Positions 42,017 through 54,076 of a DNA stretch of 64,000 nucleotides are shown here, in pieces. This DNA is from an uncultured delta proteobacterium. GTDB lineage: Bacteria > Desulfobacterota > Binatia > Binatales > Binataceae. The stretch is from positions 316,625 through 380,624 of the forward strand of contig CAWEEQ010000001.1 in the NCBI GenBank assembly GCA_963808235.1, read 5' to 3'. Under the pieces are notes generated by a model. It saw only the letters and a list, made by a program, of their open reading frames with translations, had not been told where the DNA came from and made no database searches. Each line of letters opens with the position of its first letter. Within the stretch, counting starts at the first letter, position 1. The translations under genes and the position numbers were made by a program.

Positions 42017-42865
42017 TCAGAGCAGCGATCTTTGGCCACCAGGAGCGATCTTCTTGATGTTCTTCCAAATGGTTAGTCCGGCTCGATCATGAGAAAAGTA
42101 CAGCAAATGGTACATTTGTGCGTTTTTCGTATTCGTGAAAGGAAGAACCTCGTCATCCTGAAATTCAAATCCAGCATTCCCGACCTTCTTTCGGAACGCT
42201 GACACGAACGATTGTATTACCTTTTCGGCTGGTTCTTCAGAAAATTTACCCGCCGCCTCTTTCGCCGCCGGGAGATCACGCCAATCAGTTCCTCCCCACC
42301 ACCTATCCAAACGGCTTTTCGCAACAGAAAGTGCACTTGGCAAATTACGGCGAACGCCGATTCCGCTCGCGAAGAGATACAGCAAGTCGACTCTCTTTTT
42401 TGCCAGTTTCGCCAAGGTCGCGAAATCAACCTCGAAACCCTCGGGGTCAATGAACGCGAGGGCCAGCGTGCGACTCGAGATTTTTTTCAAGACCTCGTCA
42501 ACTAGGATGTTGCAGTCGCCTCTACTGAATGTCACGCGATCGGCATCGTGGGCAGAAACCCTTCTCTTAAGGGCGGCTATGTTTTCGGGACTCCGATCCG
42601 AGAAGTAAAGGTGATCAAAGGCCGGTTTGATCTTCAATGCGATTAAGGGCGAGCCGTCGAATTCCTCTTTCGTCTCGCTAACAATGCTAAGTCCAGGTCC
42701 GGATAGCAGGTCGATATATTCAAGGCGATCCCACTTTCCTTGCGAACGCTTCGGCGCCATCGCCGTCATAAATGCTTGCGCGTACTTCTGCAGGTATCTG
42801 AGTTTTTCGCGAGTCCAAATCCTTGCCGGACGCGCGAGCAGTCCATCACTTGCAAGAAGTTTCAC
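42017..42865 (-). CDS. tcmP: Three-Cys-motif partner protein (SAM-dependent methyltransferase-like fold)
   Basis: WT.EKL..L..Y, YIDLLSGPG, GSPLIAL, GDCN and AFIDPEG motifs. GTG start at 42865 overlaps the DUF5131 stop (GTGA). Confidence 0.85.
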   Translation of the reverse strand: MKLLASDGLLARPARIWTREKLRYLQKYAQAFMTAMAPKRSQGKWDRLEYIDLLSGPGLSIVSETKEEFDGSPLIALKIKPAFDHLYFSDRSPENIAALKRRVSAHDADRVTFSRGDCNILVDEVLKKISSRTLALAFIDPEGFEVDFATLAKLAKKRVDLLYLFASGIGVRRNLPSALSVAKSRLDRWWGGTDWRDLPAAKEAAGKFSEEPAEKVIQSFVSAFRKKVGNAGFEFQDDEVLPFTNTKNAQMYHLLYFSHDRAGLTIWKNIKKIAPGGQRSLL

Positions 42866-43623
42866 GGAGCGGTGTAGGACACGGCTGGATTGTAGGCCGA
42901 AGACTTGGGCATTCCGTTCCATTCTCGGCCGTGCAGCATGCGACCGAGTTGCTTAGGACTGCGTCCTCCCCATTGTTTGAAGAAGAACGGTACTCGCGCC
43001 TCAAGACACTGATCACGAATTCTCTCAACCCAAGCAGCTGACATGCTTCGGAAATGGGGGCCGCTTTCGCCGCCTACGATTACCCAATCGATTCTCGACA
43101 GATTGATCTCACCGATATCTTCCAGGAGCGGCTCGATGGACAAGAACCGGAGACGAGCGTTTGTCGATCGGAGCGAGTGGATTCTTGGTAGGCCGTGTTC
43201 TCGGTCTTCTACGCTCACGCCCCACCAAACGTTCGAAAGTGAACCCATCCACTGGAGTTCGCCGTTCAACAATGACAGGAGTCGTTCGTGGCGTTTCGTC
43301 AGAACTTGAAACGTATGCCACTCCGCGGCCTGCATGATGCGGCCAACCCGGGCTATGAATTTTGTCGGTACGCGATCATGGAACAGATCGCTCATTGAAT
43401 TTACGAAAATCCTGCGAGGCGAACGCCATCGAAGCGGTTGGTCCAGCTTCTCGGGCACCAGCCGGATGTCGAAGCCCTGTTCGAATGGATGTCCCGGGAC
43501 GCCGCGGAATCGTTCGGCGAATCTCTCCGCGTAACAGTGCTTGCAACCTGGGCTTATCTTGCTACAGCCGCGCACCGGGTTCCACGTGGCGTCAGTCCAC
43601 TCGATAGCACTTCGATCACTCAC
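42862..43623 (-). CDS. DUF5131 / phage Gp37-Gp68 family protein (three-Cys motif)
   Basis: SAIEWTDATWNP, C-x6-C-x2-C (GCSKISPGCKHCYA), FVNSMSDLFH, LTKR, SIEPLL, GGESG and FFKQWGG motifs. Confidence 0.93.
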   Translation of the reverse strand: MSDRSAIEWTDATWNPVRGCSKISPGCKHCYAERFAERFRGVPGHPFEQGFDIRLVPEKLDQPLRWRSPRRIFVNSMSDLFHDRVPTKFIARVGRIMQAAEWHTFQVLTKRHERLLSLLNGELQWMGSLSNVWWGVSVEDREHGLPRIHSLRSTNARLRFLSIEPLLEDIGEINLSRIDWVIVGGESGPHFRSMSAAWVERIRDQCLEARVPFFFKQWGGRSPKQLGRMLHGREWNGMPKSSAYNPAVSYTAP

Positions 43624-43647
43624 GGTGCTCTCCCCCACTCATAGGCG

Positions 43648-43754: not shown

Positions 43755-44882
43755 CTACCCGAGCAGAGACTTCGCCACTGTCTCGCGGTGCACTGGGGCG
43801 TTGCCGAAGTTTGCTTCGCCGGCCAGCGCGCGGCGATGGTACAGATGCATGTCGTGCTCCCAGGTGAAGCCGATTCCGCCGTGCACCTGGATCGCTTCGG
43901 AGGTTACGTTCTTCGCCATGTCGGACGCGTATGCCTTCGCCATCGGAACCGCTGTCGCGGCCTCGGCGCCCTTGGTGTCGACGGTCCAGCAGGCGTAGTA
44001 GGTCAGCGAGCGCGAATTCTCGACCGCGACCATCATGTCGACGCACTTGTGCTTGACGGCCTGGAACGATCCGATCGGCTTGCCGAACTGCACGCGCGTC
44101 TTCGCGTATTCGACTGACATGTCGAGCGCGCGCTGCGCGGTTCCGACCATCTCGGCGGCGAGACCTGCGGTCGCGATGTCGAGCGTGCGGCGCAGGATCG
44201 GCCATCCCTCGCCTTCTTTGCCGACAACTTCAGAGGTCTTCACATTGTCGAACTTCACGTGGCATAGCCGCCGCGTCATGTCGACGGTCTTCAGTTGAGT
44301 GATTGTGATGCCCTTCGCGTTCGCGGGCATCGCCACGATGGTGATTCCCTTCTCGCCGCTGCCACCGGTGCGGACCGCGACCGCCATTCCGTTGGCGACG
44401 TGCGCATCGGGCACGAAAAACTTCTCGCCGGTAATCGTATACTCGTTGCCGCTCTTGGTCGCCTTGAGCTGGATTCCCTCGGCGTCGAATCGTCCCGCGG
44501 CCTCGGCGATCGCAACGGTACCGATAAATTCGCCCTTGGCCATCCGCGGCAGCAGATCTTTCTTTTGCTGGTCCGAGCCGCCTTCAATCAGCAGCGGCGC
44601 CGCGAGCAGCGCCGAGGTGAAGAATGGTCCCGGCACGAGTGCCTTGCCGGCTTCCTCGACGACCACCGTCATGTCGAGAAAGCTGCCGCCTTGGCCGCCG
44701 TAGCTCTCCGGGATCAGCAATCCGGGCCATCCGAGATCGACCAGCTTTTTCCAGAAAGCAGGATCGTGAGCGGTCGCGTCCGCCATCATCTGGCGCACAA
44801 ACTTGGTCGGGCAATTGTCGGCCAGAAAGCGCTTGGCCGCGTCCCGAAGCATCTCTTGTTCTTCAGAAAATCCGAAATCCAA
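43755..44882 (-). CDS. Acyl-CoA dehydrogenase (resembles the beta subunit of heterotetrameric ACADs)
   Basis: (L)DFGFSEEQEML start (TTG, GGAGG RBS), RVQFGKPIGSFQAVKH and QVHGGIGFTWEHD motifs. Confidence 0.92.
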   Translation of the reverse strand: MDFGFSEEQEMLRDAAKRFLADNCPTKFVRQMMADATAHDPAFWKKLVDLGWPGLLIPESYGGQGGSFLDMTVVVEEAGKALVPGPFFTSALLAAPLLIEGGSDQQKKDLLPRMAKGEFIGTVAIAEAAGRFDAEGIQLKATKSGNEYTITGEKFFVPDAHVANGMAVAVRTGGSGEKGITIVAMPANAKGITITQLKTVDMTRRLCHVKFDNVKTSEVVGKEGEGWPILRRTLDIATAGLAAEMVGTAQRALDMSVEYAKTRVQFGKPIGSFQAVKHKCVDMMVAVENSRSLTYYACWTVDTKGAEAATAVPMAKAYASDMAKNVTSEAIQVHGGIGFTWEHDMHLYHRRALAGEANFGNAPVHRETVAKSLLG

Positions 44883-45069
44883 CTTCGTTCCTCCGTTTTG
44901 TCGATGGGAATCCTGCGGTTTGAACCCGCTTGGATCCATGTTTCAGGTACCACTAAGGCTTTCGCGCGTGCAAGCGGCGCGAAGCTGCCGAGCGGTCTGT
45001 CTGCTCGCTTGATTCGCACGCCGGAACGGCGACAATGGCTGAATCGGAATCCGCAACCGAACAATTAAA

Positions 45070-45873
45070 ATGGAAAATAAAGATCTGTCGAAGCATAAAG
45101 ATCTGGTCCGCGAGGAATTCACTCGACAGGCGCCGGCATATGCAGAGTCGCCGGTGATCAAGGACCAGCTTCATCTGGATAAATTGGTCGAGGCAGTCCG
45201 GCCCGCTCCGGAAGCCCGCGTGCTCGAGATCGCAACTGGCCCCGGCCATGTCGCACTCGCATTCGCGCGGGTATCTCGCGAGGTGGTCGGCGTCGATCTG
45301 ACCGAGGCGCCACTGAAAATCGCGGAGAGAATGCGGGCGGAACGGGGCCTCACCAACGTCCGCTTCCAGATGGGCGACGTCGAGGAGCGGTTGCAGTTCA
45401 GCGACGGTCATTTCGACGTCGTCGTATGCCGATTCGCGATGCATCATTTCGAGCATCCGCGGATTGTCATCGCCGAGATGAGTCGGCTATGCCGGGACGG
45501 AGGAACCGTCGCGGTCGAGGATCTGATCGCGAGTGAGCATCCCGATCGCGCCGAGTATCACAACCGCTTCGAGCGGCTGCGCGACTCGTCGCACACGCGC
45601 GCGCTTGCGCTGAGCGAGTTGGTGCTGATGCTTGCGTCGGCGGGACTCGAGCTGGTGCGGTTCAGCTCCGACGGAATCCCCAATCCGGTCGCGCGATGGT
45701 TCGATAGCGCCAAGACTCCCGCCGACAAGCGCGCGCAAGCACTCGCGATGATCGAGCGGGACATGCTCGAAGATCTCAGCGGTACGAATCCGAGGCGCGT
45801 CGATGGCGAACTGTTTTTCACGCATCGCACCGCAATCCTGGTCTCACGCAAGCTGAAGCCGGCCGCGGTATAA
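45070..45873 (+). CDS. Class I SAM-dependent methyltransferase
   Basis: VLEIATGPG, GVDLT and FDVVVCRFAMHH motifs. Confidence 0.92.
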   Translation: MENKDLSKHKDLVREEFTRQAPAYAESPVIKDQLHLDKLVEAVRPAPEARVLEIATGPGHVALAFARVSREVVGVDLTEAPLKIAERMRAERGLTNVRFQMGDVEERLQFSDGHFDVVVCRFAMHHFEHPRIVIAEMSRLCRDGGTVAVEDLIASEHPDRAEYHNRFERLRDSSHTRALALSELVLMLASAGLELVRFSSDGIPNPVARWFDSAKTPADKRAQALAMIERDMLEDLSGTNPRRVDGELFFTHRTAILVSRKLKPAAV

Positions 45874-45904
45874 GCGTTCCGATGGCGCTCTTCGGCGCGG
45901 AGCC

Positions 45905-45935
45905 TTGACACGCCATAAATACTTGCACATACAAT
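45905..45935 (+). promoter_or_regulatory. marR promoter with degenerate operator
   Basis: TTGACA at 45905. CTTGCACATACAAT (45922-45935) is a variant of CTTGTATATACAAG and ends 5 nt before the ATG. Confidence 0.6.
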
Positions 45936-45940
45936 TGTCT

Positions 45941-46366
45941 ATGACCGAAGTTACCAGAAGAATCGAGCGGGAATGCGTTGGAGGCGGAGTCCGGAAGCTG
46001 AATCGGATGGTCACGGCAATCTATGATGGCGCCCTGGCAGACGCGGGATTGAAAACCAGCCAGTTCAGTGTGCTCGTAGCGGTCTCCAACCGAAAACAGG
46101 TCAGGCCTGCGGAATTGATCAAACTGCTTCAGATGGACGAATCGACGCTAAGCCGCAATGTTGAGCGAATGTGCGCCAGGGGTTGGCTGCGGCTTGAGCC
46201 GGACGAAGACCGCCGAAGCCATCTGATCGAATTGACGGGCAAGGGTCAGGCGTTGCTTCGCAAGTCTCTTCCAGCCTGGCAGCGAGCCCAGGAAGAAGTC
46301 AGTCAGTGCCTGGGAGCGGACAATGTTGCCGCGTTGAGGTCCGCGCTTCGCAATCTGAGCGCCTGA
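45941..46366 (+). CDS. MarR family regulator
   Basis: C...VRKLNR.VTAIYD, QFSVL, MDESTLSRN, DRRS and LTGKG motifs. Confidence 0.93.
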   Translation: MTEVTRRIERECVGGGVRKLNRMVTAIYDGALADAGLKTSQFSVLVAVSNRKQVRPAELIKLLQMDESTLSRNVERMCARGWLRLEPDEDRRSHLIELTGKGQALLRKSLPAWQRAQEEVSQCLGADNVAALRSALRNLSA

Positions 46367-46399
46367 AATTTTTCTTTTGATTGCCGCGAATATGGCGCG

Positions 46400-46921
46400 C
46401 TACCTGTGGAACAGTGCGCGGAGGATCGAGGGCAGGACTTCGGTGTCATGGCGCTCGACGTGCGAGTCGAGCATCGCGACCAGGGCAAGGAGCGTATGCG
46501 CGAAGTCGGCGCGGCCCTGGGCGGTTTGCGCTTCACGATCCGCACCCGACGACGACGCACGCAGAGCAGCCATCAACTTGCCCATCTCTTGCCGTTCGTT
46601 TTTAAGAGTCTCGAACAACGGCGGAGAGATCGCGTGATGCGCCTCGCCCCACTCGAACACCAACTCTTCTTCGATTTGCAGATGCGACCATAGATCGTGG
46701 CGTATCTCGTCCCATAGCTGCTGGGCCCGTTGATTCGCTGCATCGTCGCCGCGATCACTGGCGAGCCTGGTGGCAGCGAAAGCCAACTGCACAACAAGGT
46801 AGTTCAATTTTCTGTGTTCGGCTCCCAGACACGTCACCATGGTATTGATCATCGGAATCTCGAGCTCGGGTAGGGGAGCGCGGCAAATCGTCATCTGAGT
46901 CGTAACCTCCAGAGCTTCCAT
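46400..46921 (-). CDS. Hemerythrin-like (HHE) protein
   Basis: EHRKL, HLQIEEELVF and HVERHDTEVLP motifs. GGAGG RBS. Confidence 0.78.
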   Translation of the reverse strand: MEALEVTTQMTICRAPLPELEIPMINTMVTCLGAEHRKLNYLVVQLAFAATRLASDRGDDAANQRAQQLWDEIRHDLWSHLQIEEELVFEWGEAHHAISPPLFETLKNERQEMGKLMAALRASSSGADREAQTAQGRADFAHTLLALVAMLDSHVERHDTEVLPSILRALFHR

Positions 46922-46952
46922 GTTGTTCGCCTCCAGCAGTTACAGGGGGAAG

Positions 46953-46968
46953 AGCAATCGCGATGCCA
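46953..46968 (-). promoter_or_regulatory. Sigma54-type promoter for the hemerythrin-like gene
   Basis: Minus strand TGGCAT-CGCGA-TTGCT, about 30 nt upstream of the ATG. Confidence 0.7.
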
Positions 46969-47087
46969 CGAATTGGAATCGGCATACTTGAGGAACTGCG
47001 TAGCGCGGGCTGTTCTGCTTCTGCGAATTAATCGCGAAATGCGGGTTGCCGGCCGTTCGACTCGCAAAAAAATTCTCGTGGTCCAAC

Positions 47088-47189
47088 TCTTGTATATACA
47101 AGAATTCACGGCAAAAAGAATGAAAAACATTGTTGAAAATAATGACGAAGGGCAATTCGCGAACGGCCAAAACCGTCGCGATTTGCGAG
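47088..47189 (+). repeat. Duplicated leader, copy 1 (operator palindrome + hairpin)
   Basis: Perfect 16-bp palindrome TCTTGTATATACAAGA, then CAATTCGCGAACGGCCAAAACCGTCGCGATTTGCGAG. Homologous to 50084-50185. Confidence 0.85.
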
Positions 47190-47194
47190 TCAGA

Positions 47195-48349
47195 ATGGAC
47201 GCCGCGGAACTCGAGACTCAGCTCGATATAAGACGACATCTGCGCGGGCGCACAGATTCGACCGATCGGTTGGTAGCGCTGCGCAAAGGTCCCAGCGAGG
47301 ATCTCGACCGGCGCATCGAATTGCCCGGCGGCGCCGAGCCAGAGTTCGGCTCATCGGGTGGAGGCTCATGGTTCCGTCGCATATCTAAGCGAGTCGTATT
47401 GGCAGTGTTGCTGGTGGTCGCGTTGGGAGCGGTCTCGCCGTTTGTATGGAACTACCTGCAATCCTACGAATCCACGGACGACGCACAGATCGATGGCCAT
47501 ATCGATCCATTGAGCTCGCGGATCAACGGGACTGTCATCCGGGTTCACGCCGAGAATAACGATCGTGTGAAAGCCGGCGAACTGCTGGTCGAGATCGACC
47601 CGCGCGACTTCGAAGTCGCGGTGGCGCAGGCAAAGGCTCGGCTTGAGCTTGCAATCGCCCAGGTCGCGTCGGCGAAACAGGACTACGCTGCAGCGCTCGC
47701 GAACGTTCGGGAAGACGACGCGGCTAATTTCAAGGCGCAGAGGGATGCGCAGCGTTTCACCGTCCTGCTCAGCAAGCAGGTGGTGGCGCAGAACGAATAC
47801 GATCAGTACAACGCGACCGCGCGCGTCGAGGCGGCCAAAGTCGATTCCTCGCGCGAGGCCGCGGGCAGTGCGCTCAAGACGATCGCCGCGCGCCAGGCGG
47901 ACGCCGACGGGGCACAGGCGGCGCTCGATCAGGCTCTGCTGAACCTCAGCTACACGAAGATCTACGCTCCGGCCAACGGCATCGCCGGCAGACGCACCGT
48001 CGAGCTCGGTTCTCGAATCGAACCCGGACAGACGCTGATGTTCGTAACCGAGACCGACGAGATCTGGGTGACCGCGGATTTCAAGGAGACGCAACTCGCG
48101 CGGATGCATCGCGGCGAGAAAGTCACCATCCACGTGGATACCTTCGGCCGCGATTATCGTGGCTACGTGAGGAACCTGCCCGGCGCGAGCGGCGATCGCT
48201 TCAGCCTGCTGCCCGCCGAGAATGCGACCGGCAATTACGTAAAGGTGGTGCAGCGCCTGCCGGTGCGAATCGAGTTCGACGCCGGCCAGGATCCTGAGCA
48301 TCGCTTGCATCCCGGAATGTCGGTGGAGCCCAAAGTATGGCTGCGTTAA
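47195..48349 (+). CDS. EmrA/HlyD-family efflux membrane fusion protein
   Basis: ESTDDAQIDG, ADFKETQL and FSLLPAENATGNYVKVVQRLPVRI motifs. Start uncertain (ATG 47195 or 47120). Confidence 0.92.
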   Translation: MDAAELETQLDIRRHLRGRTDSTDRLVALRKGPSEDLDRRIELPGGAEPEFGSSGGGSWFRRISKRVVLAVLLVVALGAVSPFVWNYLQSYESTDDAQIDGHIDPLSSRINGTVIRVHAENNDRVKAGELLVEIDPRDFEVAVAQAKARLELAIAQVASAKQDYAAALANVREDDAANFKAQRDAQRFTVLLSKQVVAQNEYDQYNATARVEAAKVDSSREAAGSALKTIAARQADADGAQAALDQALLNLSYTKIYAPANGIAGRRTVELGSRIEPGQTLMFVTETDEIWVTADFKETQLARMHRGEKVTIHVDTFGRDYRGYVRNLPGASGDRFSLLPAENATGNYVKVVQRLPVRIEFDAGQDPEHRLHPGMSVEPKVWLR

Positions 48350-49938
48350 GCGCAGTGCAGGCGCCCGCCGCGAGGCGGGCGCACAATGAATGGGCGATCG
48401 CGCTTACGGTTACGATGGCGACGTTCATGGAGCTGCTCGATACGAGTATCTCGAACGTCTCGCTGCCGCACATCGCCGGCGGTCTCGGCACCAGCTACGA
48501 CGAAAGCACCTGGGTGCTGACCAGCTACCTGGTCGCCAACGCGGTGATCCTGCCGATGAGCGCGTGGCTCAGCCGGGTCTTCGGGCGCAAGCGTTACTAC
48601 ATGATGTGCGTCGCGCTATTCACCGTGAGTTCGTTTCTATGCGGCGTCGCTCCGAGCCTGGCGTTGCTGATCGTGTTTCGCGTGATGCAGGGAATCGGCG
48701 GCGGCGGCCTCGCGCCGGTCGAACAGGCAATCCTGGTCGATACTTTCCCCAAGGAAAAACTCGGCGGAGCATTCGCACTCTACAGCATGGCGATCACCGC
48801 GGCGCCGGCGATTGGGCCGCCGCTCGGAGGATGGATCACCGACAGCTTCTCGTGGCGATGGGTATTCTTCATCAACGTCCCGATCGGAATTCTGTCGCTG
48901 ATCCTTTCGAGCCGGCTGGTGCACGACCCGGTCGAATTCACCGAGGAACGCAAGCAGGCGCGGCGCAGTGGCCGTCTTCGAATTGACTATGTCGGAATCG
49001 TACTAATCGCAGTCGGCTTCGCCTGCCTGGAAGTCGTGCTCGATCGCGGTGAGCGCGACGACTGGCTGGAAAGCCATTTCATCGCCACCTTTCTCGCGAT
49101 TGCCGTCGTCGCGATCGCGATCGCGATTTGGTGGGAATGGCGCCACGACGATCCGGTAGTCGAGCTGACTCTGCTCCGCGAGCGCAACTTCGCGATCGCC
49201 AACGTCTACTACTTTCTCTTCGCATTCGGGCTTTTCGGCAGCACGGTGCTGATTCCCGAAATGCTCCAGACGTTGTTCGGATACACGGCCACCGATGCGG
49301 GCCTCGCGCTCGGACCCGGCGCCGCGCTGGTCGTGCTGCTGGCGCCGTTCGTGGTGCGGATCGTCCCACGAATCGGCGCGAAACGCCTGCTCGCCTTCAG
49401 CTTCACCATCGCCGCGCTGTCCTTTTTCTACTACAGCGGGATGACGACTCAGACTGACTATTTACATTTCGCGCTAGCCCGATGCTTTCAGGGTTTCGGC
49501 TATGCCTTCATGTTCGTGCCGGTGACCCAGCTCGCTTACTCGTATCTGCCCAAAAACAAGAACAACAAGGGATCCAGTCTGACTAACCTCTGCCGCAACT
49601 GGGGCGCCAGTTTCGGGATCTCCTTCGTCACCACGATGCTCGAGCGGCGGACGCAGTATCACCAGAGCGTGCTGGTCTGCAATCTCACCTCCGCCGATGC
49701 AAGCGTGCAGCAGTTCGTCAAGACCTCGAGCCATTTCCTGGTGACGCGCGGCTCGAGCACTCCCGACGCAATTCATCAGGCATATGGAATGGTCGGGAGC
49801 ATGATGACCCAGCAGGCGGCGATGCTTGCGTTCATGGATTGTTTTCATCTGCTCGCGATTGTCGTGATTGCGGGCCTGCCGCTGGCGTTCCTTGCCCGGC
49901 GTTTCGAAATAGGCAAGGCGGCCGGTGGTGCGCACTGA
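48337..49938 (+). CDS. DHA2 (EmrB/QacA) MFS efflux permease
   Basis: ELLDTSISNVSLPHI, WVLTSYL and WRWVFFINVPIG motifs. Confidence 0.94.
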   Translation: MAALSAVQAPAARRAHNEWAIALTVTMATFMELLDTSISNVSLPHIAGGLGTSYDESTWVLTSYLVANAVILPMSAWLSRVFGRKRYYMMCVALFTVSSFLCGVAPSLALLIVFRVMQGIGGGGLAPVEQAILVDTFPKEKLGGAFALYSMAITAAPAIGPPLGGWITDSFSWRWVFFINVPIGILSLILSSRLVHDPVEFTEERKQARRSGRLRIDYVGIVLIAVGFACLEVVLDRGERDDWLESHFIATFLAIAVVAIAIAIWWEWRHDDPVVELTLLRERNFAIANVYYFLFAFGLFGSTVLIPEMLQTLFGYTATDAGLALGPGAALVVLLAPFVVRIVPRIGAKRLLAFSFTIAALSFFYYSGMTTQTDYLHFALARCFQGFGYAFMFVPVTQLAYSYLPKNKNNKGSSLTNLCRNWGASFGISFVTTMLERRTQYHQSVLVCNLTSADASVQQFVKTSSHFLVTRGSSTPDAIHQAYGMVGSMMTQQAAMLAFMDCFHLLAIVVIAGLPLAFLARRFEIGKAAGGAH

Positions 49939-49951
49939 ACAGGTGACAAAT

Positions 49952-50059
49952 ATGGACGACCAGATCAGCCAGTTGTTGTTGCTCGCAATTTTCTTCGTCG
50001 CGGCAATAGTCCTCGCGGATTGGGCGACGCAGCCACGCGATCGCAACGACGACGATTGA
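49952..50059 (+). CDS. Putative 35-aa single-pass membrane microprotein
   Basis: AGGTGA RBS, then MDDQISQLLLLAIFFVAAIVLADWATQPRDRNDDD*, starting 13 nt after the permease stop. Below the ORF-track cutoff. Confidence 0.6.
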   Translation: MDDQISQLLLLAIFFVAAIVLADWATQPRDRNDDD

Positions 50060-50083
50060 CTTCAAAAGTTTTCTGGCCCGGGT

Positions 50084-50185
50084 CTTGTATATACAAGCGC
50101 TGACGGCCGATACATGAGCGCCCTTATTTGAGCATAAAGGCGAAAAACCAATTCGCGAACAGCTAAAGCCGTCGCGATTTGCGAG
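50084..50185 (+). repeat. Duplicated leader, copy 2
   Basis: CTTGTATATACAAG, then after 51 nt CAATTCGCGAACAGCTAAAGCCGTCGCGATTTGCGAG. Confidence 0.85.
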
Positions 50186-50195
50186 GTTAGCTAAA

Positions 50196-51050
50196 ATGGA
50201 AACAAGCATCGAGGAACAAGCGGACGCAGGAATCAAAGTCGTTAACGCAAAGCTGAATTACCTCGCAGAGGCGACACCGAAGCCGGTCAACTATGCCTAC
50301 GATCCGCCTGCCGGAGTCCCGCGCGGGTCTGGAAGATACGTCGCGCAAACCGTCGCTATCCGCAACGGCCGCGAGGTAGGCGGTGAACTCTCGCTCGACA
50401 CCAACGGTTTCATGCTCACGCCGCACGAAACTGCGGTCAAGGATTTCTACGATCCCGAAGAGGTCAAGGCCGCGTACTATCCCGAAGTCGAGCGCCTCGT
50501 GAAGCGAGTGACCGGCGCCGAGCGCGTGCTGGTTTTCGATCACATCGTGCGTAATCCGGTGCTCGCGAAACTCGGAGAGAAGGGCGCGCGCCCGCCTGCC
50601 AAGATCGTGCACAACGATTACAGCTTCAAATCCGCACCACGCCGCGTCCGCGACCATCTACCCGATGAAGCAGAGCGGCTGCTGAGGAATCGCTTCGCCG
50701 AGATTAACGTCTGGCGCGCGATTCGCGGCCCGATCGAAAGCTCGCCGCTCGCGCTCTGCGACGCCCGCAGCCTCGGCGCGGAAGATATCGTGCCGACCGA
50801 CCTGGTTTATCGCGACCGTGTCGGCGAAATCCTCGGCTTCCTCTACAACCCGAAGCATCGCTGGTACTACTTCCCGCGCCTGGAACGTGATGAAGCAATC
50901 TTGCTGAAGTGCTACGACTCCAAGGACGATGGCCGCGCGCGCTTTACGGCGCACACCTCGTTCGACGATCCGAATAGCCCGCCCAACGCGGCGCCGCGCG
51001 AGAGCATCGAAGTGCGAGCGCTGGTTTTCTGGGCGCCCGAGGCCGCTTAA
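50196..51050 (+). CDS. CmcJ/NvfI-family oxidoreductase (Fe/2OG-type)
   Basis: LDTNGF, FDHIVR, VHNDY, INVWR, PLALCDARS, HTSF and RESIEVR motifs. Confidence 0.88.
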   Translation: METSIEEQADAGIKVVNAKLNYLAEATPKPVNYAYDPPAGVPRGSGRYVAQTVAIRNGREVGGELSLDTNGFMLTPHETAVKDFYDPEEVKAAYYPEVERLVKRVTGAERVLVFDHIVRNPVLAKLGEKGARPPAKIVHNDYSFKSAPRRVRDHLPDEAERLLRNRFAEINVWRAIRGPIESSPLALCDARSLGAEDIVPTDLVYRDRVGEILGFLYNPKHRWYYFPRLERDEAILLKCYDSKDDGRARFTAHTSFDDPNSPPNAAPRESIEVRALVFWAPEAA

Positions 51051-51079
51051 GCGACCGCCATAACCAAGGAGATATCAAG

Positions 51080-52057
51080 ATGCACGCTGTTCAGCTCACA
51101 GCTTATGGCAACCCTGTCGAAGGTCTGAAGTATGTCGACATTCCCGCGCCCGAGGCTCCCGGCCCGAACCAGGTCCTCATCGGCGTGGAGTTTTCGCCGC
51201 TCAACCAGAGCGACCTCTTGCTCGCACGGGGCATCTACGGATCGCGCCCCGCGCTGCCAACTGTCATCGGCAATGAAGGCGTCGGCCGCGTTCTCGCCGT
51301 GGGAGCAGGAGTAGAGACCGTCAAGGTCTGTGACCGCGTCCTGGCGCCACTGTCCAGCTTCACCTGGAGAGAGCGAATGGTCATTTCGGCGAAAGGTCTT
51401 TTCGCTTTGCCCGCCGGCGCGGACCCGCAGCAGTTGTCGATGCTGGCGATCAATCCCCCGACCGCGGCGCTGCTGCTGAGCGAGTACGTCGAGCTGAAGC
51501 CGGGTGATTGGGTGGTGCAGAACTCCGCCAATTCCGGGGTCGGGCGATGGGTGATCGCGTTCGCGAAAAAGCGTGGCCTGAAGACCGTCAACATCGTGCG
51601 GCGGCCGGAGCTTGTGGCCGAGCTCAAGGCGATCGGCGCAGACGTCATCGTCATCGACTCTCCCAATCTATCGAAAGAGATCAAAGACGCTGTTGGTCGG
51701 GCTGATCTCCGCCTCGCGCTTGACGGTGTCAGCGGCCCGGCGTCGGGCGTGCTCGCGTCGACGCTCTCGCCTCATGGCACGCTCGTCTCGTATGCGGCGA
51801 TGAGCACCGGTCCGATGTCGATCAGCCCGCTGGACGTTATCTTCAAGCCGCTCACGGTGCGAGGCTTCTGGCTGGGCCATCCGGAGTCCGAGGCCAAAAG
51901 TGCGCCGGCAATAGCACAGGCGGCGGAGATGATCGCGTCCGCCAAGGTACACATTCCGGTGACCGCGACCTACCCCCTGTCGTCGATCAAGGAGGCCGTC
52001 GCGCATGCGCAACGCGGCGGAAAGGTTCTTCTGGACGTAAGCGAATCATCCAGATGA
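51080..52057 (+). CDS. MDR-family reductase (trans-2-enoyl reductase-like)
   Basis: SPLNQSD, GNEGVG, INPPTA and QNSANSGVG motifs. Confidence 0.9.
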   Translation: MHAVQLTAYGNPVEGLKYVDIPAPEAPGPNQVLIGVEFSPLNQSDLLLARGIYGSRPALPTVIGNEGVGRVLAVGAGVETVKVCDRVLAPLSSFTWRERMVISAKGLFALPAGADPQQLSMLAINPPTAALLLSEYVELKPGDWVVQNSANSGVGRWVIAFAKKRGLKTVNIVRRPELVAELKAIGADVIVIDSPNLSKEIKDAVGRADLRLALDGVSGPASGVLASTLSPHGTLVSYAAMSTGPMSISPLDVIFKPLTVRGFWLGHPESEAKSAPAIAQAAEMIASAKVHIPVTATYPLSSIKEAVAHAQRGGKVLLDVSESSR

Positions 52058-52102
52058 CCTCGGAATATTATTTTCGACACAACCAACTATGGAGCAATCA
52101 AA

Positions 52103-52852
52103 ATGAGCGGAAAACTCGAAGGCAAGGTGGCGCTGGTTACCGGAGGTAATAGTGGTATCGGCCTGGCCACGGCGAAGCGATTCGTCGCAGAGGGCGCGTA
52201 CGTCTTCATAACCGGTCGCCGTCAGCGCGAACTCGATGCGGCGGTGAAGGAGATCGGAAGGAATGTAACCGGAGTTCAGGGAGACGTGACGAACCTGGGC
52301 GATCTTGATCGCCTGTTCGCGCAAATCCAGCGCGAGAAGGGCAAGCTCGACATTGTGTTCGCGAATTCCAGTTTTGCGGTGTATGCCCCCCTGGGCGCGA
52401 TCACTGAGGAGCACTTCGACACCCACTTCAACGTCAATGTGAAAGGCGTCCTTTTCACGGTGCAGAAGGCCCTTCCGCTGCTGCCGGATGGAGCCTCGAT
52501 CATCCTCAATGCGTCGATCGTCGGCAGCAAAGGCTTTGCTTCGAACAGTGTCTACAGCGCGACGAAAGCCGCCCTGCGTTCGTTCGCGCGGACTTGGACA
52601 ATGGACTTGAAGGATCGCCACATTCGCGTGAACGCTGTCAGCCCCGGTCCCATCGAGACGCCCGGACTCAAAAGTCTGGTGGCCTCATCAGGAGGCGAGG
52701 GACGCTTGAAGGAGCTCTCCAGCGGTGTGCCGCTCGGCAGGCTCGGCACGCCCGATGAGATCGGAAAGGCGGTAGTGTTTCTCGCATCCGACGACAGCAG
52801 CTTTGTCACGGGAGCCGAACTGTTTGTGGATGGCGGCTTAGCGCAAGTCTGA
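52103..52852 (+). CDS. SDR family oxidoreductase
   Basis: [13 protein letters not shown] and RVNAVSPG motifs. Confidence 0.95.
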
Positions 52853-52897
52853 GTCTCAGTTCGGCTTTTATCCAGTCGCCGGCTCAAGCACCGCTTG

Positions 52898-54076
52898 CTA
52901 ATTCCGGTTCGAAATTAGCGCGAGGACGCCCGAGTATTGCAGTAGCGACGTGTTTTCGCCGAGCGCGCCAATTTCGAAGCCGGTGAAAAATCCGGCGACG
53001 GGTACCGGCCCGAGGTAGCGCCTGATGTACGCGGAATCGTGGCCCGGGATGTTGTAGAGACTCGCGCCGCGCGACACGCAATCGAAGTAGAGGCCGAACG
53101 CGGGCGGTGATTCGAGGCGCTCGGTCAATTCTTCCAGCGTCAGTTTCAAATCCTGGCGCGAGCGTTCCGCGTCGCGGAGCACGAAACCGATCGTGTCGCC
53201 AACCGCGGGCTGAAAGGCCACGGCGATGACGCCATGTTCTTCGCTGGCGCCCACGATATTGCGCACCACGAATTGTCCGCGCTCGATCGTCGTAGCGCCT
53301 TCGTATATCGGGACCGCAACGAACACGTAAGCAAGTGCGCGGCGCAAGTCCGCGGCCAGCGGGCCGGCGGCCTCGGCGAAAACTTCGTAGGCCGGGCGTC
53401 CGTCGAGTTCGAGCAATATATTGTCGCGCACCGCCGTAACTCGTCGCGCCGGGCCAATCGGCGTGCATGCGATCGAGCTCGCGAGCGTGAGATCGAAATC
53501 GCCGGATAGCAACATCCCCGACACTGCGTTCGAGCTGACCGTGTCTCCGCAGAAGACGAAGGTCTCGCCAACGGAGCCATCTTCGCTCGCGCCGCCGCCG
53601 GCGATCGCCACCTTGGGCAATTCTTTTGCCAGCGCGCCGAGCGTGGCCTCCGCTTCGAAGTTGTAACTGTCGGCGAGGAGGATGAGCAGATTCGATTTGC
53701 CGAGATGCGGGCGCACTGCCGATGCGATCTCGGTTGCGACTCCGGCCGCGCGTCCGCGCAGGGTCGGCACGAAGAACCGCGTGGCATGCAGTTCGTCGCC
53801 GCCGAAGACCAGCACTGCGAGCGCGTTGCCATGCTCGATCTCTTTCTCGCCCGCGATCACGCCCGTCCCGGAGCATCCTACGACTTCGTGCGTATTGGCT
53901 TCCGAAGCCACCGTGCGCAGGATCATGGGATAGGCGGCGCCGTAGGCCGGAGTCGCAAAGCATAGCGCCCCGGTGGCGCGATGGAGTCCCGCCTGCGCGA
54001 GTGCGGCCGCGGTAGCCTCGCTGGCGGCGTTGCGCGGATTGTGCGCGCTCGAAAAGCCCACTCCGGCGCGAATCAT
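52898..54076 (-). CDS. FIST N/C domain protein
   Basis: VVGCSGTG, GGGAS, LELDGRPA, CVSRG and GFFTGFEI motifs. Confidence 0.9.
   Translation of the reverse strand: MIRAGVGFSSAHNPRNAASEATAAALAQAGLHRATGALCFATPAYGAAYPMILRTVASEANTHEVVGCSGTGVIAGEKEIEHGNALAVLVFGGDELHATRFFVPTLRGRAAGVATEIASAVRPHLGKSNLLILLADSYNFEAEATLGALAKELPKVAIAGGGASEDGSVGETFVFCGDTVSSNAVSGMLLSGDFDLTLASSIACTPIGPARRVTAVRDNILLELDGRPAYEVFAEAAGPLAADLRRALAYVFVAVPIYEGATTIERGQFVVRNIVGASEEHGVIAVAFQPAVGDTIGFVLRDAERSRQDLKLTLEELTERLESPPAFGLYFDCVSRGASLYNIPGHDSAYIRRYLGPVPVAGFFTGFEIGALGENTSLLQYSGVLALISNRN

Follow-up and report, generated by a model that had tools for sequence, protein, structure and literature searches.

The window analysed here, 64,000 nucleotides of an uncultured delta proteobacterium of the family Binataceae (NCBI GenBank assembly GCA_963808235.1, contig CAWEEQ010000001.1, positions 316,625 to 380,624 of the forward strand), holds two copies of a promoter cassette of ~110-140 nt that has been reused before several non-homologous detoxification operons and that occurs 3-4 times in this genome. 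From its 5' end the cassette comprises a T-run, a box resembling the -24/-12 promoters of sigma-54, the palindrome CTTGTATATACAAG, a Shine-Dalgarno (SD)-like stretch with an ATG, ~11 codons, and an inner element, block C, which is preceded by the AT-rich stretch CATCATTGAAAAT. A preliminary description of this DNA had presented block C as the hairpin of a candidate new cis-regulatory RNA. Comparison of its copies indicates that block C is selected as a nucleic acid, because its bases are kept in any reading frame and its synonymous sites are frozen on rare codons. It is probably a protein-binding site at the level of DNA, of one kind or another, and is tentatively proposed to be an enhancer for a sigma-54 activator (bacterial enhancer-binding protein, bEBP), with the cassette as a portable control unit. 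The two window copies are laid out as follows, where block C denotes the extended inner element CAA..GAG.

47079-47094, plus strand: -24/-12-like box of cassette 1, TGGTCCAACTCTTGTA, with a T/A-rich run before it
47089-47102, plus strand: palindrome of cassette 1, CTTGTATATACAAG, a putative MarR operator over the -12 region and the predicted transcription start
47153-47189, plus strand: block C copy 1 (the "hairpin"), CAATTCGCGAACGGCCAAAACCGTCGCGATTTGCGAG, readable as two dyads, TCGC-N5-GCCA and TCGC-N5-GCGA, 19 bp apart
47190-47228, plus strand: block D, a stretch of weaker homology (..DAAELETQLD) common to the third genomic copy and many cassettes elsewhere
50074-50089, plus strand: -24/-12-like box of cassette 2, TGGCCCGGGTCTTGTA
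50084-50097, plus strand: palindrome of cassette 2, CTTGTATATACAAG
50114-50131, plus strand: decayed remnant of the cassette open reading frame (ORF), MSALI*
50149-50185, plus strand: block C copy 2, non-coding, with TAA and TAG in the old frame

A scan of the window located the perfect 14-bp palindrome exactly at these two places, together with a third, palindrome-like site at 45922 that differs from it by 3 mismatches; three or more such matches were obtained in 0 of 100 shuffles, compared with the 3 in the window. The inner element TTCGCGAAC-N9-CGTCGCGATTTGCGAG was found at 47156-47189 and 50152-50185 with 0 mismatches (chance expectation, 0.00). Pairwise alignment of the two copies gave conserved blocks at both ends and a diverged spacer between them. 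Scan and alignment thus confirm the earlier observation of two homologous stretches, each with an exact operator and a diverged spacer. The final bases of block C copy 2, GAG, form with the next G the SD sequence of the following gene.

Further copies in this genome and in related genomes, for which the preliminary description had proposed a search, proved numerous enough to define the cassette as a family. The genome as a whole has four palindromes and three copies of block C. The fourth palindrome (locus L001, contig C1:69132-69145 of the same assembly, outside the window) stands before a gene for a GMC-oxidoreductase-like protein and retains the TGG box and the conserved ATG; its block C is present only in decayed form, which suggests loss of the inner element from a cassette. 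Copies within the genus were gathered by the palindrome alone, which avoids ascertainment bias. The sequence TTGTATATRCAA was present in 23 of 47 genus genomes, and the fetched flanks yielded 66 distinct cassette-oriented sites, 63 with block C and three without (L001, L067, and L079). The distance from the beginning of the palindrome core TTGTATAT to block C is 62-67 nt in the 63 copies, apart from one, with a partly duplicated palindrome, at 76 nt. At locus L012 (G015:C2, ~233503), a partial tandem duplication of the palindrome (CTTGTATATACAAGGTATATACAAG) moves block C 11 nt farther from the first palindrome copy. A covariance model of block C was then applied to the class, where real matches were confined to the window's own family, and to the family, where 38 of 151 genomes, belonging to 12 of 30 genera, contained block C at an E of 1e-4 or better (37/150 genomes and 11/30 genera when genome G237 is excluded). 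Forty-five model matches from other genera were fetched along with one locus of the window's genus, and the palindrome stood upstream in 43 of those fetched matches. Weak model matches outside the family (E of 0.001 or more), as well as L160 and L121:1055, were judged spurious, lacking the palindrome and lying in coding context.

The genes linked to the cassette encode EmrA-like, CmcJ-like, PaaI-like, and MBL-like proteins, two types of short-chain dehydrogenase/reductase (SDR), a DUF-type protein, and a small protein MNLVILI. A near-identical promoter region thus precedes non-homologous genes, which is the hallmark of a reused, or "mobile," promoter, and it bears out the earlier suggestion that the element spread by promoter duplication. 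In several copies, the second of the window among them, the 3' edge of block C is precisely where homology stops, and no conservation between cassette families extends upstream of the T-run. That these families are old is indicated by paralogous types shared between species and represented in 12 of the 30 genera, and by the divergence of their spacers. No transposase or terminal repeats were seen beside the copies, in the absence of a systematic search for them.

The conservation of block C follows its bases and not its reading frame. Aligned column by column, the copies are 90-100% identical over the palindrome and block C; identity falls to 40-80% across the spacer and first 11 codons and to 30-70% beyond block C. 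The ATG and block C share a frame in 44 of the 63 copies, while in the other 19 block C follows a stop, is frameshifted, or has no ATG, yet its bases are intact; the out-of-frame readings are DSRTAKxVAICE or SIRERPKLSRFA. Where it is in frame, CAA is fixed in 43 of 43 copies (share of Gln codons in the genome, 0.26), GAT in 44 of 44 (genome share, 0.41), and CGA in 44 of 44 (0.12), and TTG is used in 43 of 44 (0.11), whereas neighboring conserved residues are specified by mixed codons (e.g., AAC 18 and AAT 9; GCC 8, GCT 7, and GCA 2) and a downstream Gln codon is CAG in 19 of 21. The claim that the hairpin region is better conserved than the spacer, pointing to selection beyond the operator, is substantiated by these identities, frozen codons, and out-of-frame copies. 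The same 19 copies and frozen synonymous sites do not fit attenuation by a leader peptide encoded in an upstream ORF (uORF). Alignment resolves block C into a pair of similar units, TCGCGAACGGCCA and TCGCGATTTGCGA, which are spaced 19 bp apart and both fit TCGC-N5-GC(C/G)A. The near-palindromic second unit, of 13 bp, accounts for the conserved CGAG tail of the element, and the whole looks, from this arrangement, like a composite protein-binding site. Pairs of the TCGCGA-N13-TCGCGA type occur elsewhere in the genome (40 strand-wise matches), with no visible link to -24/-12 motifs. We know of no match between block C and the LexA, NorR, or CIRCE boxes.

The origin of the element became clear once the start of the downstream gene in cassette 1 was reassigned.

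47120-48349, plus strand: EmrA-like membrane-fusion protein gene (TIGR00998 EmrA/EmrK, 1.2e-70)

The ORF that contains emrA is open from 46973, with the ATG at 47120 in frame. The true start of emrA is this ATG and not the one at 47195, since the upstream ATG is common to the copies and orthologs lack an ATG at the 47195 position. Copies of emrA type in the genus have at least 130 in-frame codons from the upstream ATG and GGAG/GGA-like stretches before it, and most emrA-type orthologs have no Met at the position of 47195. In the third genomic copy, which stands on the minus strand of contig C4 before an SDR gene, homology continues past 47195 with no ATG there, and the upstream ATG is shared. 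The spacings of 5 and 10 nt that had been reported between the end of the element and the ATGs at 47195 and 50196 are accurate, although the former ATG is not a start codon. Block C therefore occupies codons 12-23 of emrA (QFANGQNRRDLR; QFANGQxxRDLR). In copy 2 the corresponding ATG opens only the MSALI mini-ORF, which had been noticed at the outset as the counterpart of an in-frame ATG in copy 1, and block C has stops in the old frame. By origin, the "leader" is the promoter and 5' coding end of an emrA-like gene. The preliminary description had named the decayed 5' coding end of a duplicated gene as an outcome that would undo its proposal; the origin is as it feared, but the decay is not, for block C is intact and selected. 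The cassette ORF runs in frame into the protein in PaaI-like, EmrA-like, some CmcJ-like, and further genes, and is elsewhere reduced to short uORFs or dead remnants. PaaI-like (hotdog) thioesterases at nine loci (L024, L028, L037, L040, L047, L057, L070, L078, and L080) are translated from the cassette ATG; they bear an N-terminal extension of 35-55 residues borrowed from EmrA and contain no internal Met as an alternative start.

Selection on a nucleic acid could in principle act on the transcript, with block C forming a stem-loop in the mRNA that serves as a protein or small-ligand site or as a stability or processing signal. Block C is downstream of any plausible promoter and would thus be transcribed, its orientation and promoter distance are always alike, and its core 6-bp stem, TCGCGA/TCGCGA, retains four pairs in 62 of 62 distinct sequences, although these core pairs never vary and are for that reason uninformative on covariation. 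Pairing is retained in 88.7% of the cells of the proposed 12-pair stem over the 63 copies. In one copy the stem has been compensated and made perfect (CATTTCGCGA/TCGCGAAATG), and most one-sided changes are wobble-compatible; nevertheless, the count of compensatory cells is 1 of 744 in the 62 distinct sequences, the covariation score is 0.106 where shuffles give 0.110, and each observed measure is equaled or exceeded by 415-484 of 500 shuffles. Of the two apical pairs, one is lost in 21 and the other in 36 of the 62 sequences, and a G-to-A change in the 5' arm is left as an uncompensated A-C in 6 copies. RNAalifold gave -7.92 kcal/mol for the hairpin, of which covariation contributed -0.08. The stem leaves it unexplained that conservation of at least 90% extends to the "loop" (GGCCAA) and to the 3' tail (CGAG), which is unpaired.

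Folded alone, copy 1 is well above shuffles (-19.6 kcal/mol, z -3.4), but copies 2 (-12.2 kcal/mol, z -1.4) and 3 (z -0.8, in a different register) are no better than shuffles, and in minimum-energy folds of whole leaders the stem is present in some and absent from others, including copies 2 and 3. The statement that both window copies form the same stem accordingly holds when each is folded alone and fails for copy 2 within its whole leader. No Rfam 15 family matched positions 44000-54000 at an E up to 1. The distance from block C to the next start codon ranges from 10 to >50 nt, so sequestration of the SD sequence by the stem would not be consistent and was dropped. Four other candidate functions were also abandoned: an intrinsic attenuator (no U-run), an integron attC-like site (unfitting core sites), an ECF-type or sigma-70 internal promoter inside block C (unfitting spacings), and programmed frameshifting at the A-runs that precede block C (a slippery heptamer is lacking, and orthologs differ in frame). 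The sequence is too conserved for the covariation test, nothing specifically supports RNA, and a function in the transcript is judged unlikely. The headline proposal of a new cis-regulatory RNA was not sustained: pairing covaried no better than in shuffles, the structure-preserving changes expected of homologs were all but missing, apical pairs were broken while loop and tail were conserved, start distances varied, and the Rfam check returned no family. The alternative offered beside it, a second DNA-binding site, is favored by the nucleotide-level constraint and the dyads, the binding itself being predicted from sequence.

In the model proposed for the cassette, the promoter and first 25-35 codons of an emrA-like efflux gene would have become a transferable unit. 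The sigma-54-type -24/-12-like box would be its promoter, a MarR-family repressor would bind the palindrome over the -12 region and the predicted transcription start, and block C, at ~+50 to +85 (34-37 nt), would act as DNA, not as peptide and probably not as RNA. An activator bound to block C would loop back to the cassette promoter and, where one is present, to the sigma-54 promoter of a divergent hemerythrin gene. With an enhancer downstream of the promoter and inside emrA, each functional promoter duplication would have to carry ~100 nt of the emrA coding region with it. No other shared candidate for this enhancer is available, because nothing upstream of the T-run is conserved between cassette families. 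The model would explain why block C is conserved in any frame and why, in several copies, the minimal homology ends at its 3' edge.

The promoter assignment rests on the box itself. All copies have a T-run followed by TGG(T/C)C(C/T)(G/A) at a fixed distance upstream of the palindrome, so that the box reads TGGyCCG-N4-TTGTA, a likeness to -24/-12 elements that was noted on copies of the window's own genus before those of other genera were examined. Among 109 cassettes from several genera, T is found at -11 in 106, G at -10 in 108, G at -9 in 106, C at -6 in 94, and G at -5 in 81; TTG is present in all 109, and there is never an insertion or deletion between TGG and TTG. In promoter coordinates this places GG at -25/-24 (108/109 and 106/109) and TTG at -15 to -13 with fixed spacing. 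The box of one other genus, TGGCACG-N4-TTGTAT, has a canonical -24 element. Sigma-54 promoters have a near-invariant C at -12, and the genome encodes one copy of rpoN and 19 matches to bEBPs. The tested sigma-54 promoters in the table of PMC4428206 are of the form TTGGCACG-N4-TTGCA/T, which the cassette box shares except for its -12 base, and 12 of the 12 promoters in that table of the regular TTGGyA..-N-TTGC form have GC at -12. The T found there in the cassettes belongs to the palindrome (CTTGTAT) and is forced by it; in view of this T, the box is called -24/-12-like and not a proven sigma-54 promoter.

The repressor in this model is a candidate by neighborhood and co-occurrence, and its gene lies upstream of cassette 1.

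45905-45940, plus strand: MarR promoter as read from the sequence (TTGACA at 45905-45910, 17 nt, CATACA at 45928-45933; ATG 7 nt after the -10 box)
45922-45935, plus strand: operator-like, half-degenerate palindrome CTTGCACATACAAT at the MarR promoter
45941-46366, plus strand: MarR-family regulator (NCBIfam MarR-type matches; start at an invariant Met, aligned with orthologs)

Orthologous MarR loci have TTGACA-17-TATACA with TTGCATATACAA over the -10 box. Within the genus, a MarR ortholog was detected in 21 of the 23 genomes that have the palindrome and in none of the 24 that lack it, and the gene always adjoins a cassette of emrA type, within ~1 kb in the genus and immediately upstream of it in another genus. 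The arrangement resembles emrRAB, with an adjacent MarR gene and a palindromic site at both its own and the target promoters, and the neighboring MarR is the likely binder of the palindrome, whose operator role is putative. The regulator's own sigma-70-type promoter has the operator and lacks block C, from which it follows that block C travels with the -24/-12-like box and not with the operator. The TTG start at 45905 given in the ORF list is too early for the MarR gene, the invariant Met being at 45941, and the gene appears, from its predicted promoter, to be leaderless or nearly so.

A second, predicted promoter diverges from cassette 1.

46400-46921, minus strand: hemerythrin (HHE) domain gene, divergent from cassette 1 (Pfam PF01814)
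46953-46968, minus strand: canonical -24/-12 motif TGGCATCGCGATTGCT before the hemerythrin gene
47018-47044, plus strand: compacted block-C-like motif TTCTGCGAA-TTAA-TCGCGAAATGCGGG, between the two divergent promoters and outside the predicted transcripts

A divergent canonical motif, TGGCA(C/T)-N5-TTGCT (TGGCAyCyGGATTGCT), precedes a hemerythrin gene at 18 of the 66 genus cassettes. The center of block C lies 127-162 nt upstream of the inferred start of the hemerythrin gene in 17 of these 18 loci, and 229 nt upstream in the window. Enhancers for bEBPs are usually dyad-symmetric sites ~80-150 bp from a sigma-54 promoter, and in those 17 loci block C presents dyads at the usual enhancer distance from the divergent motif; relative to the cassette's own promoter the site is downstream, at ~+68. 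The compact divergent loci contain no other non-coding DNA able to hold an enhancer. The canonical motif predicts a sigma-54-dependent hemerythrin gene set back to back with the efflux cassette. In the window, the spacer between the divergent promoters is longer, and it is there that the compacted motif lies (47018-47044). The short core of this motif occurs 48 times in the 4.59-Mb genome, with ~0.002 expected in a 170-bp spacer, and as a single post-hoc instance it is lightly weighted.

Several observations weigh against an enhancer at block C. Enhancers do not usually lie where block C does, at +50 to +85 within sequence that is transcribed and translated, and the 19-bp spacing of the dyads does not correspond to an integral number of helical turns. 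All 109 cassettes have T at -12, so that the GC doublet is lacking throughout, and the box could serve another factor. No bEBP gene adjoins the cassettes in this genome, and no cognate activator was found among the candidate bEBPs tested. When eight non-receiver bEBPs were profiled on 2 cassette-positive and 3 cassette-negative genomes, a PAS-PAS bEBP alone fitted; across the genus, 11 of 23 positive genomes had this gene, as did 2 of 24 negative genomes, i.e., it is enriched but not required, and it was rejected as an obligatory activator. One-sided changes in the outer stem, as would be tolerated in an RNA, are most commonly wobble-compatible (UG 9, GU 17, GU 3, and GU 8, compared with 23 broken cells), and palindromic DNA folds as RNA too, the hairpin being the only consensus structure that RNAalifold found in the leader. 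The enhancer proposal is advanced on the strength of the fixed box, the dyads, and the divergent loci, and is held tentatively. Its fullest form would be an "inside-out" sigma-54 region, with an intragenic enhancer shared with a divergent promoter, MarR gating of a weakened -12 (GT for GC), and detoxification proteins that share a borrowed peptide start in any of three frames; this combination is possible, though doubtful.

The search for an activator also yielded observations on individual bEBPs. Four short PspF-like bEBPs, a MEDS bEBP, and a GAF-PAS bEBP did not follow the cassette in the five test genomes and were set aside. The profile tests covered eight genes; the remaining 11 of the 19 matches represent 10 other genes, as one match duplicates a tested gene at a contig end. 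The PAS-PAS bEBP gene is found both at the end of contig C4 (C4:3847361-3849286) and at the start of C2 (C2:441-2129), the two versions matching over 553 residues with 100% identity; the probable cause is an assembly overlap or a repeat where the contigs break. A tblastn comparison of the 19 matches with all fetched loci returned only PAS-domain fragments beside two cassettes (L066 and L119), the latter a broken gene. Four strict matches to the -24/-12 motif cluster in C4:65648-96660 around the gene for a receiver-type bEBP (C4:79501-80859), at a distance of 13-44 kb from the third cassette.

A DNA site need not imply sigma-54, and block C might instead be a second operator, for a repressor or another transcription factor, which would block elongation or cooperate with MarR at a sigma-70 promoter whose -10 box lies inside the palindrome. 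Such a site would be under the same nucleotide-level constraint and have the same dyad symmetry, the MarR promoter does use TATACA of the palindrome as its -10 box, and the T at -12 argues against sigma-54. However, the cassettes have only the T-run where a -35-like hexamer would be expected, 17 nt upstream of TATACA, and a sigma-70 scan of 46900-50300 returned 0 sites (terminator-like sites there were at chance level). The invariant TGG at canonical -24 spacing would go unexplained, block C is unlike the MarR palindrome, and no second regulator gene is conserved near the cassettes, MarR being the only one within 8 kb in the window. A second operator without sigma-54 is therefore considered improbable. 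Least probable is a role for the encoded peptide (QFANGQxxRDLR as an N-terminal tail of EmrA, a leader, or an arrest peptide) or plain inheritance among copies too young to have diverged, for although most copies are in frame with a conserved ATG and SD-like stretch, the ORF continues into PaaI-like, CmcJ-like, and EmrA-like proteins, and more divergent copies retain F-A-x-x-Q...D-L-R, the 19 out-of-frame copies keep their bases, synonymous sites are frozen on rare codons while neighboring codons drift, and the paralogous families are old enough for their spacers to have diverged to 30-70% identity.

The remaining genes of the two cassette operons, and their surroundings, are as follows.

48337-49938, plus strand: EmrB-like MFS efflux permease (Pfam MFS_1, 1.6e-62)
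49952-50059, plus strand: small ORF of 35 aa, ending ..NDDD, after emrB (own reading of the translation)
50196-52852, plus strand: cassette-2 operon of three genes
50196-51050, plus strand: CmcJ/NvfI-family oxidoreductase, first gene of the cassette-2 operon (NF041278, 9.7e-103)
51080-52057, plus strand: Zn-dependent dehydrogenase, second gene of the cassette-2 operon (Pfam ADH_zinc_N/ADH_N)
52103-52852, plus strand: SDR, third gene of the cassette-2 operon (Pfam adh_short_C2)

The product of the small ORF has a hydrophobic core, and its 3' end, ..ACGACGATTGA, is found again in many genomes just 5' of the second cassette, so the ORF probably encodes a genuine small membrane protein belonging to the pump operon. 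Farther upstream on the minus strand (42017-43638), a three-Cys-motif partner protein (TcmP, TIGR04474) stands beside a weak match to a radical-SAM "mobile pair protein A," and the two may be a mobile gene pair.

If the enhancer model is correct, a regulon can expand through duplication of an entire control unit, comprising a promoter, sites for a repressor and an activator, and a start of translation, and need not evolve each site afresh; pieces of donor coding sequence fused to unrelated proteins would also be explained. The cassette would also be a natural case of an intragenic, promoter-proximal sigma-54 enhancer combined with a MarR repressor on such a promoter. The 34-nt element together with the operator is a precise marker for predicting members of an efflux and detoxification regulon across 12 of the 30 family genera searched, and it corrects gene starts, here 47120 for 47195. 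Were block C to act as RNA after all, it would be a new and widespread 5' element of efflux and detoxification operons.

A literature search with the block C strings found no paper, and the palindrome string gave one match, in a review on Bacillus licheniformis promoters. No such system was among the titles listed for MarR, sigma-54, and emrA, and neither an intragenic promoter-proximal sigma-54 enhancer nor a MarR repressor on such a promoter turned up in the literature searched. The parts of the cassette do have counterparts in known systems. In Escherichia coli emrRAB, the MarR-family protein EmrR/MprA represses the EmrAB efflux operon. Here, too, a MarR gene stands beside an EmrA/EmrB-type pump with palindromic sites at the regulator and pump promoters, but the regulator is a separate transcription unit, the operator is common to several further detoxification operons, the pump promoter looks to be of the -24/-12 type, and the coding region contains a second conserved element. 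CIRCE/HrcA-type elements are inverted repeats with a 9-nt spacer that act as DNA operators and also affect the mRNA. Block C is similarly an inverted repeat with a spacer of ~9-13 nt, downstream of the promoter in every operon of its regulon; it differs in having no sequence likeness to CIRCE, a spacer conserved on one side, and a position in coding sequence. With sigma-54/bEBP systems the cassette shares TGG at -24 and TTG at -14 with fixed spacing, rpoN and bEBPs in the genome, and a dyad-rich element at enhancer distance from a canonical divergent -24/-12 motif, and it departs from them in the invariant T at -12, the putative repressor operator over -12, and the failure to find a cognate activator among the bEBPs profiled.

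A precedent for a bEBP site downstream of its promoter is the downstream activating sequence of Bacillus subtilis rocG, an enhancer that acts from 3' of the promoter, 1.5 kb away and beyond the gene (Belitsky and Sonenshein, 1999, as cited in PMC4941409); block C, by comparison, is only ~85 bp downstream and inside translated sequence. The mode of spread is closest to promoter reuse in prokaryotes, in which highly similar promoter regions are found before unrelated genes, within a genome and in related genomes, and rewire their regulation (Nijveen, Matus-Garcia, and van Passel; PMC3575422). The cassette resembles the mobile promoters described there in standing before genes for EmrA-like, CmcJ-like, SDR, PaaI-like thioesterase, and other proteins, and it differs from that description in reaching ~100 nt into donor coding sequence, in generating in-frame N-terminal fusions in many copies, and in carrying a selected internal element.

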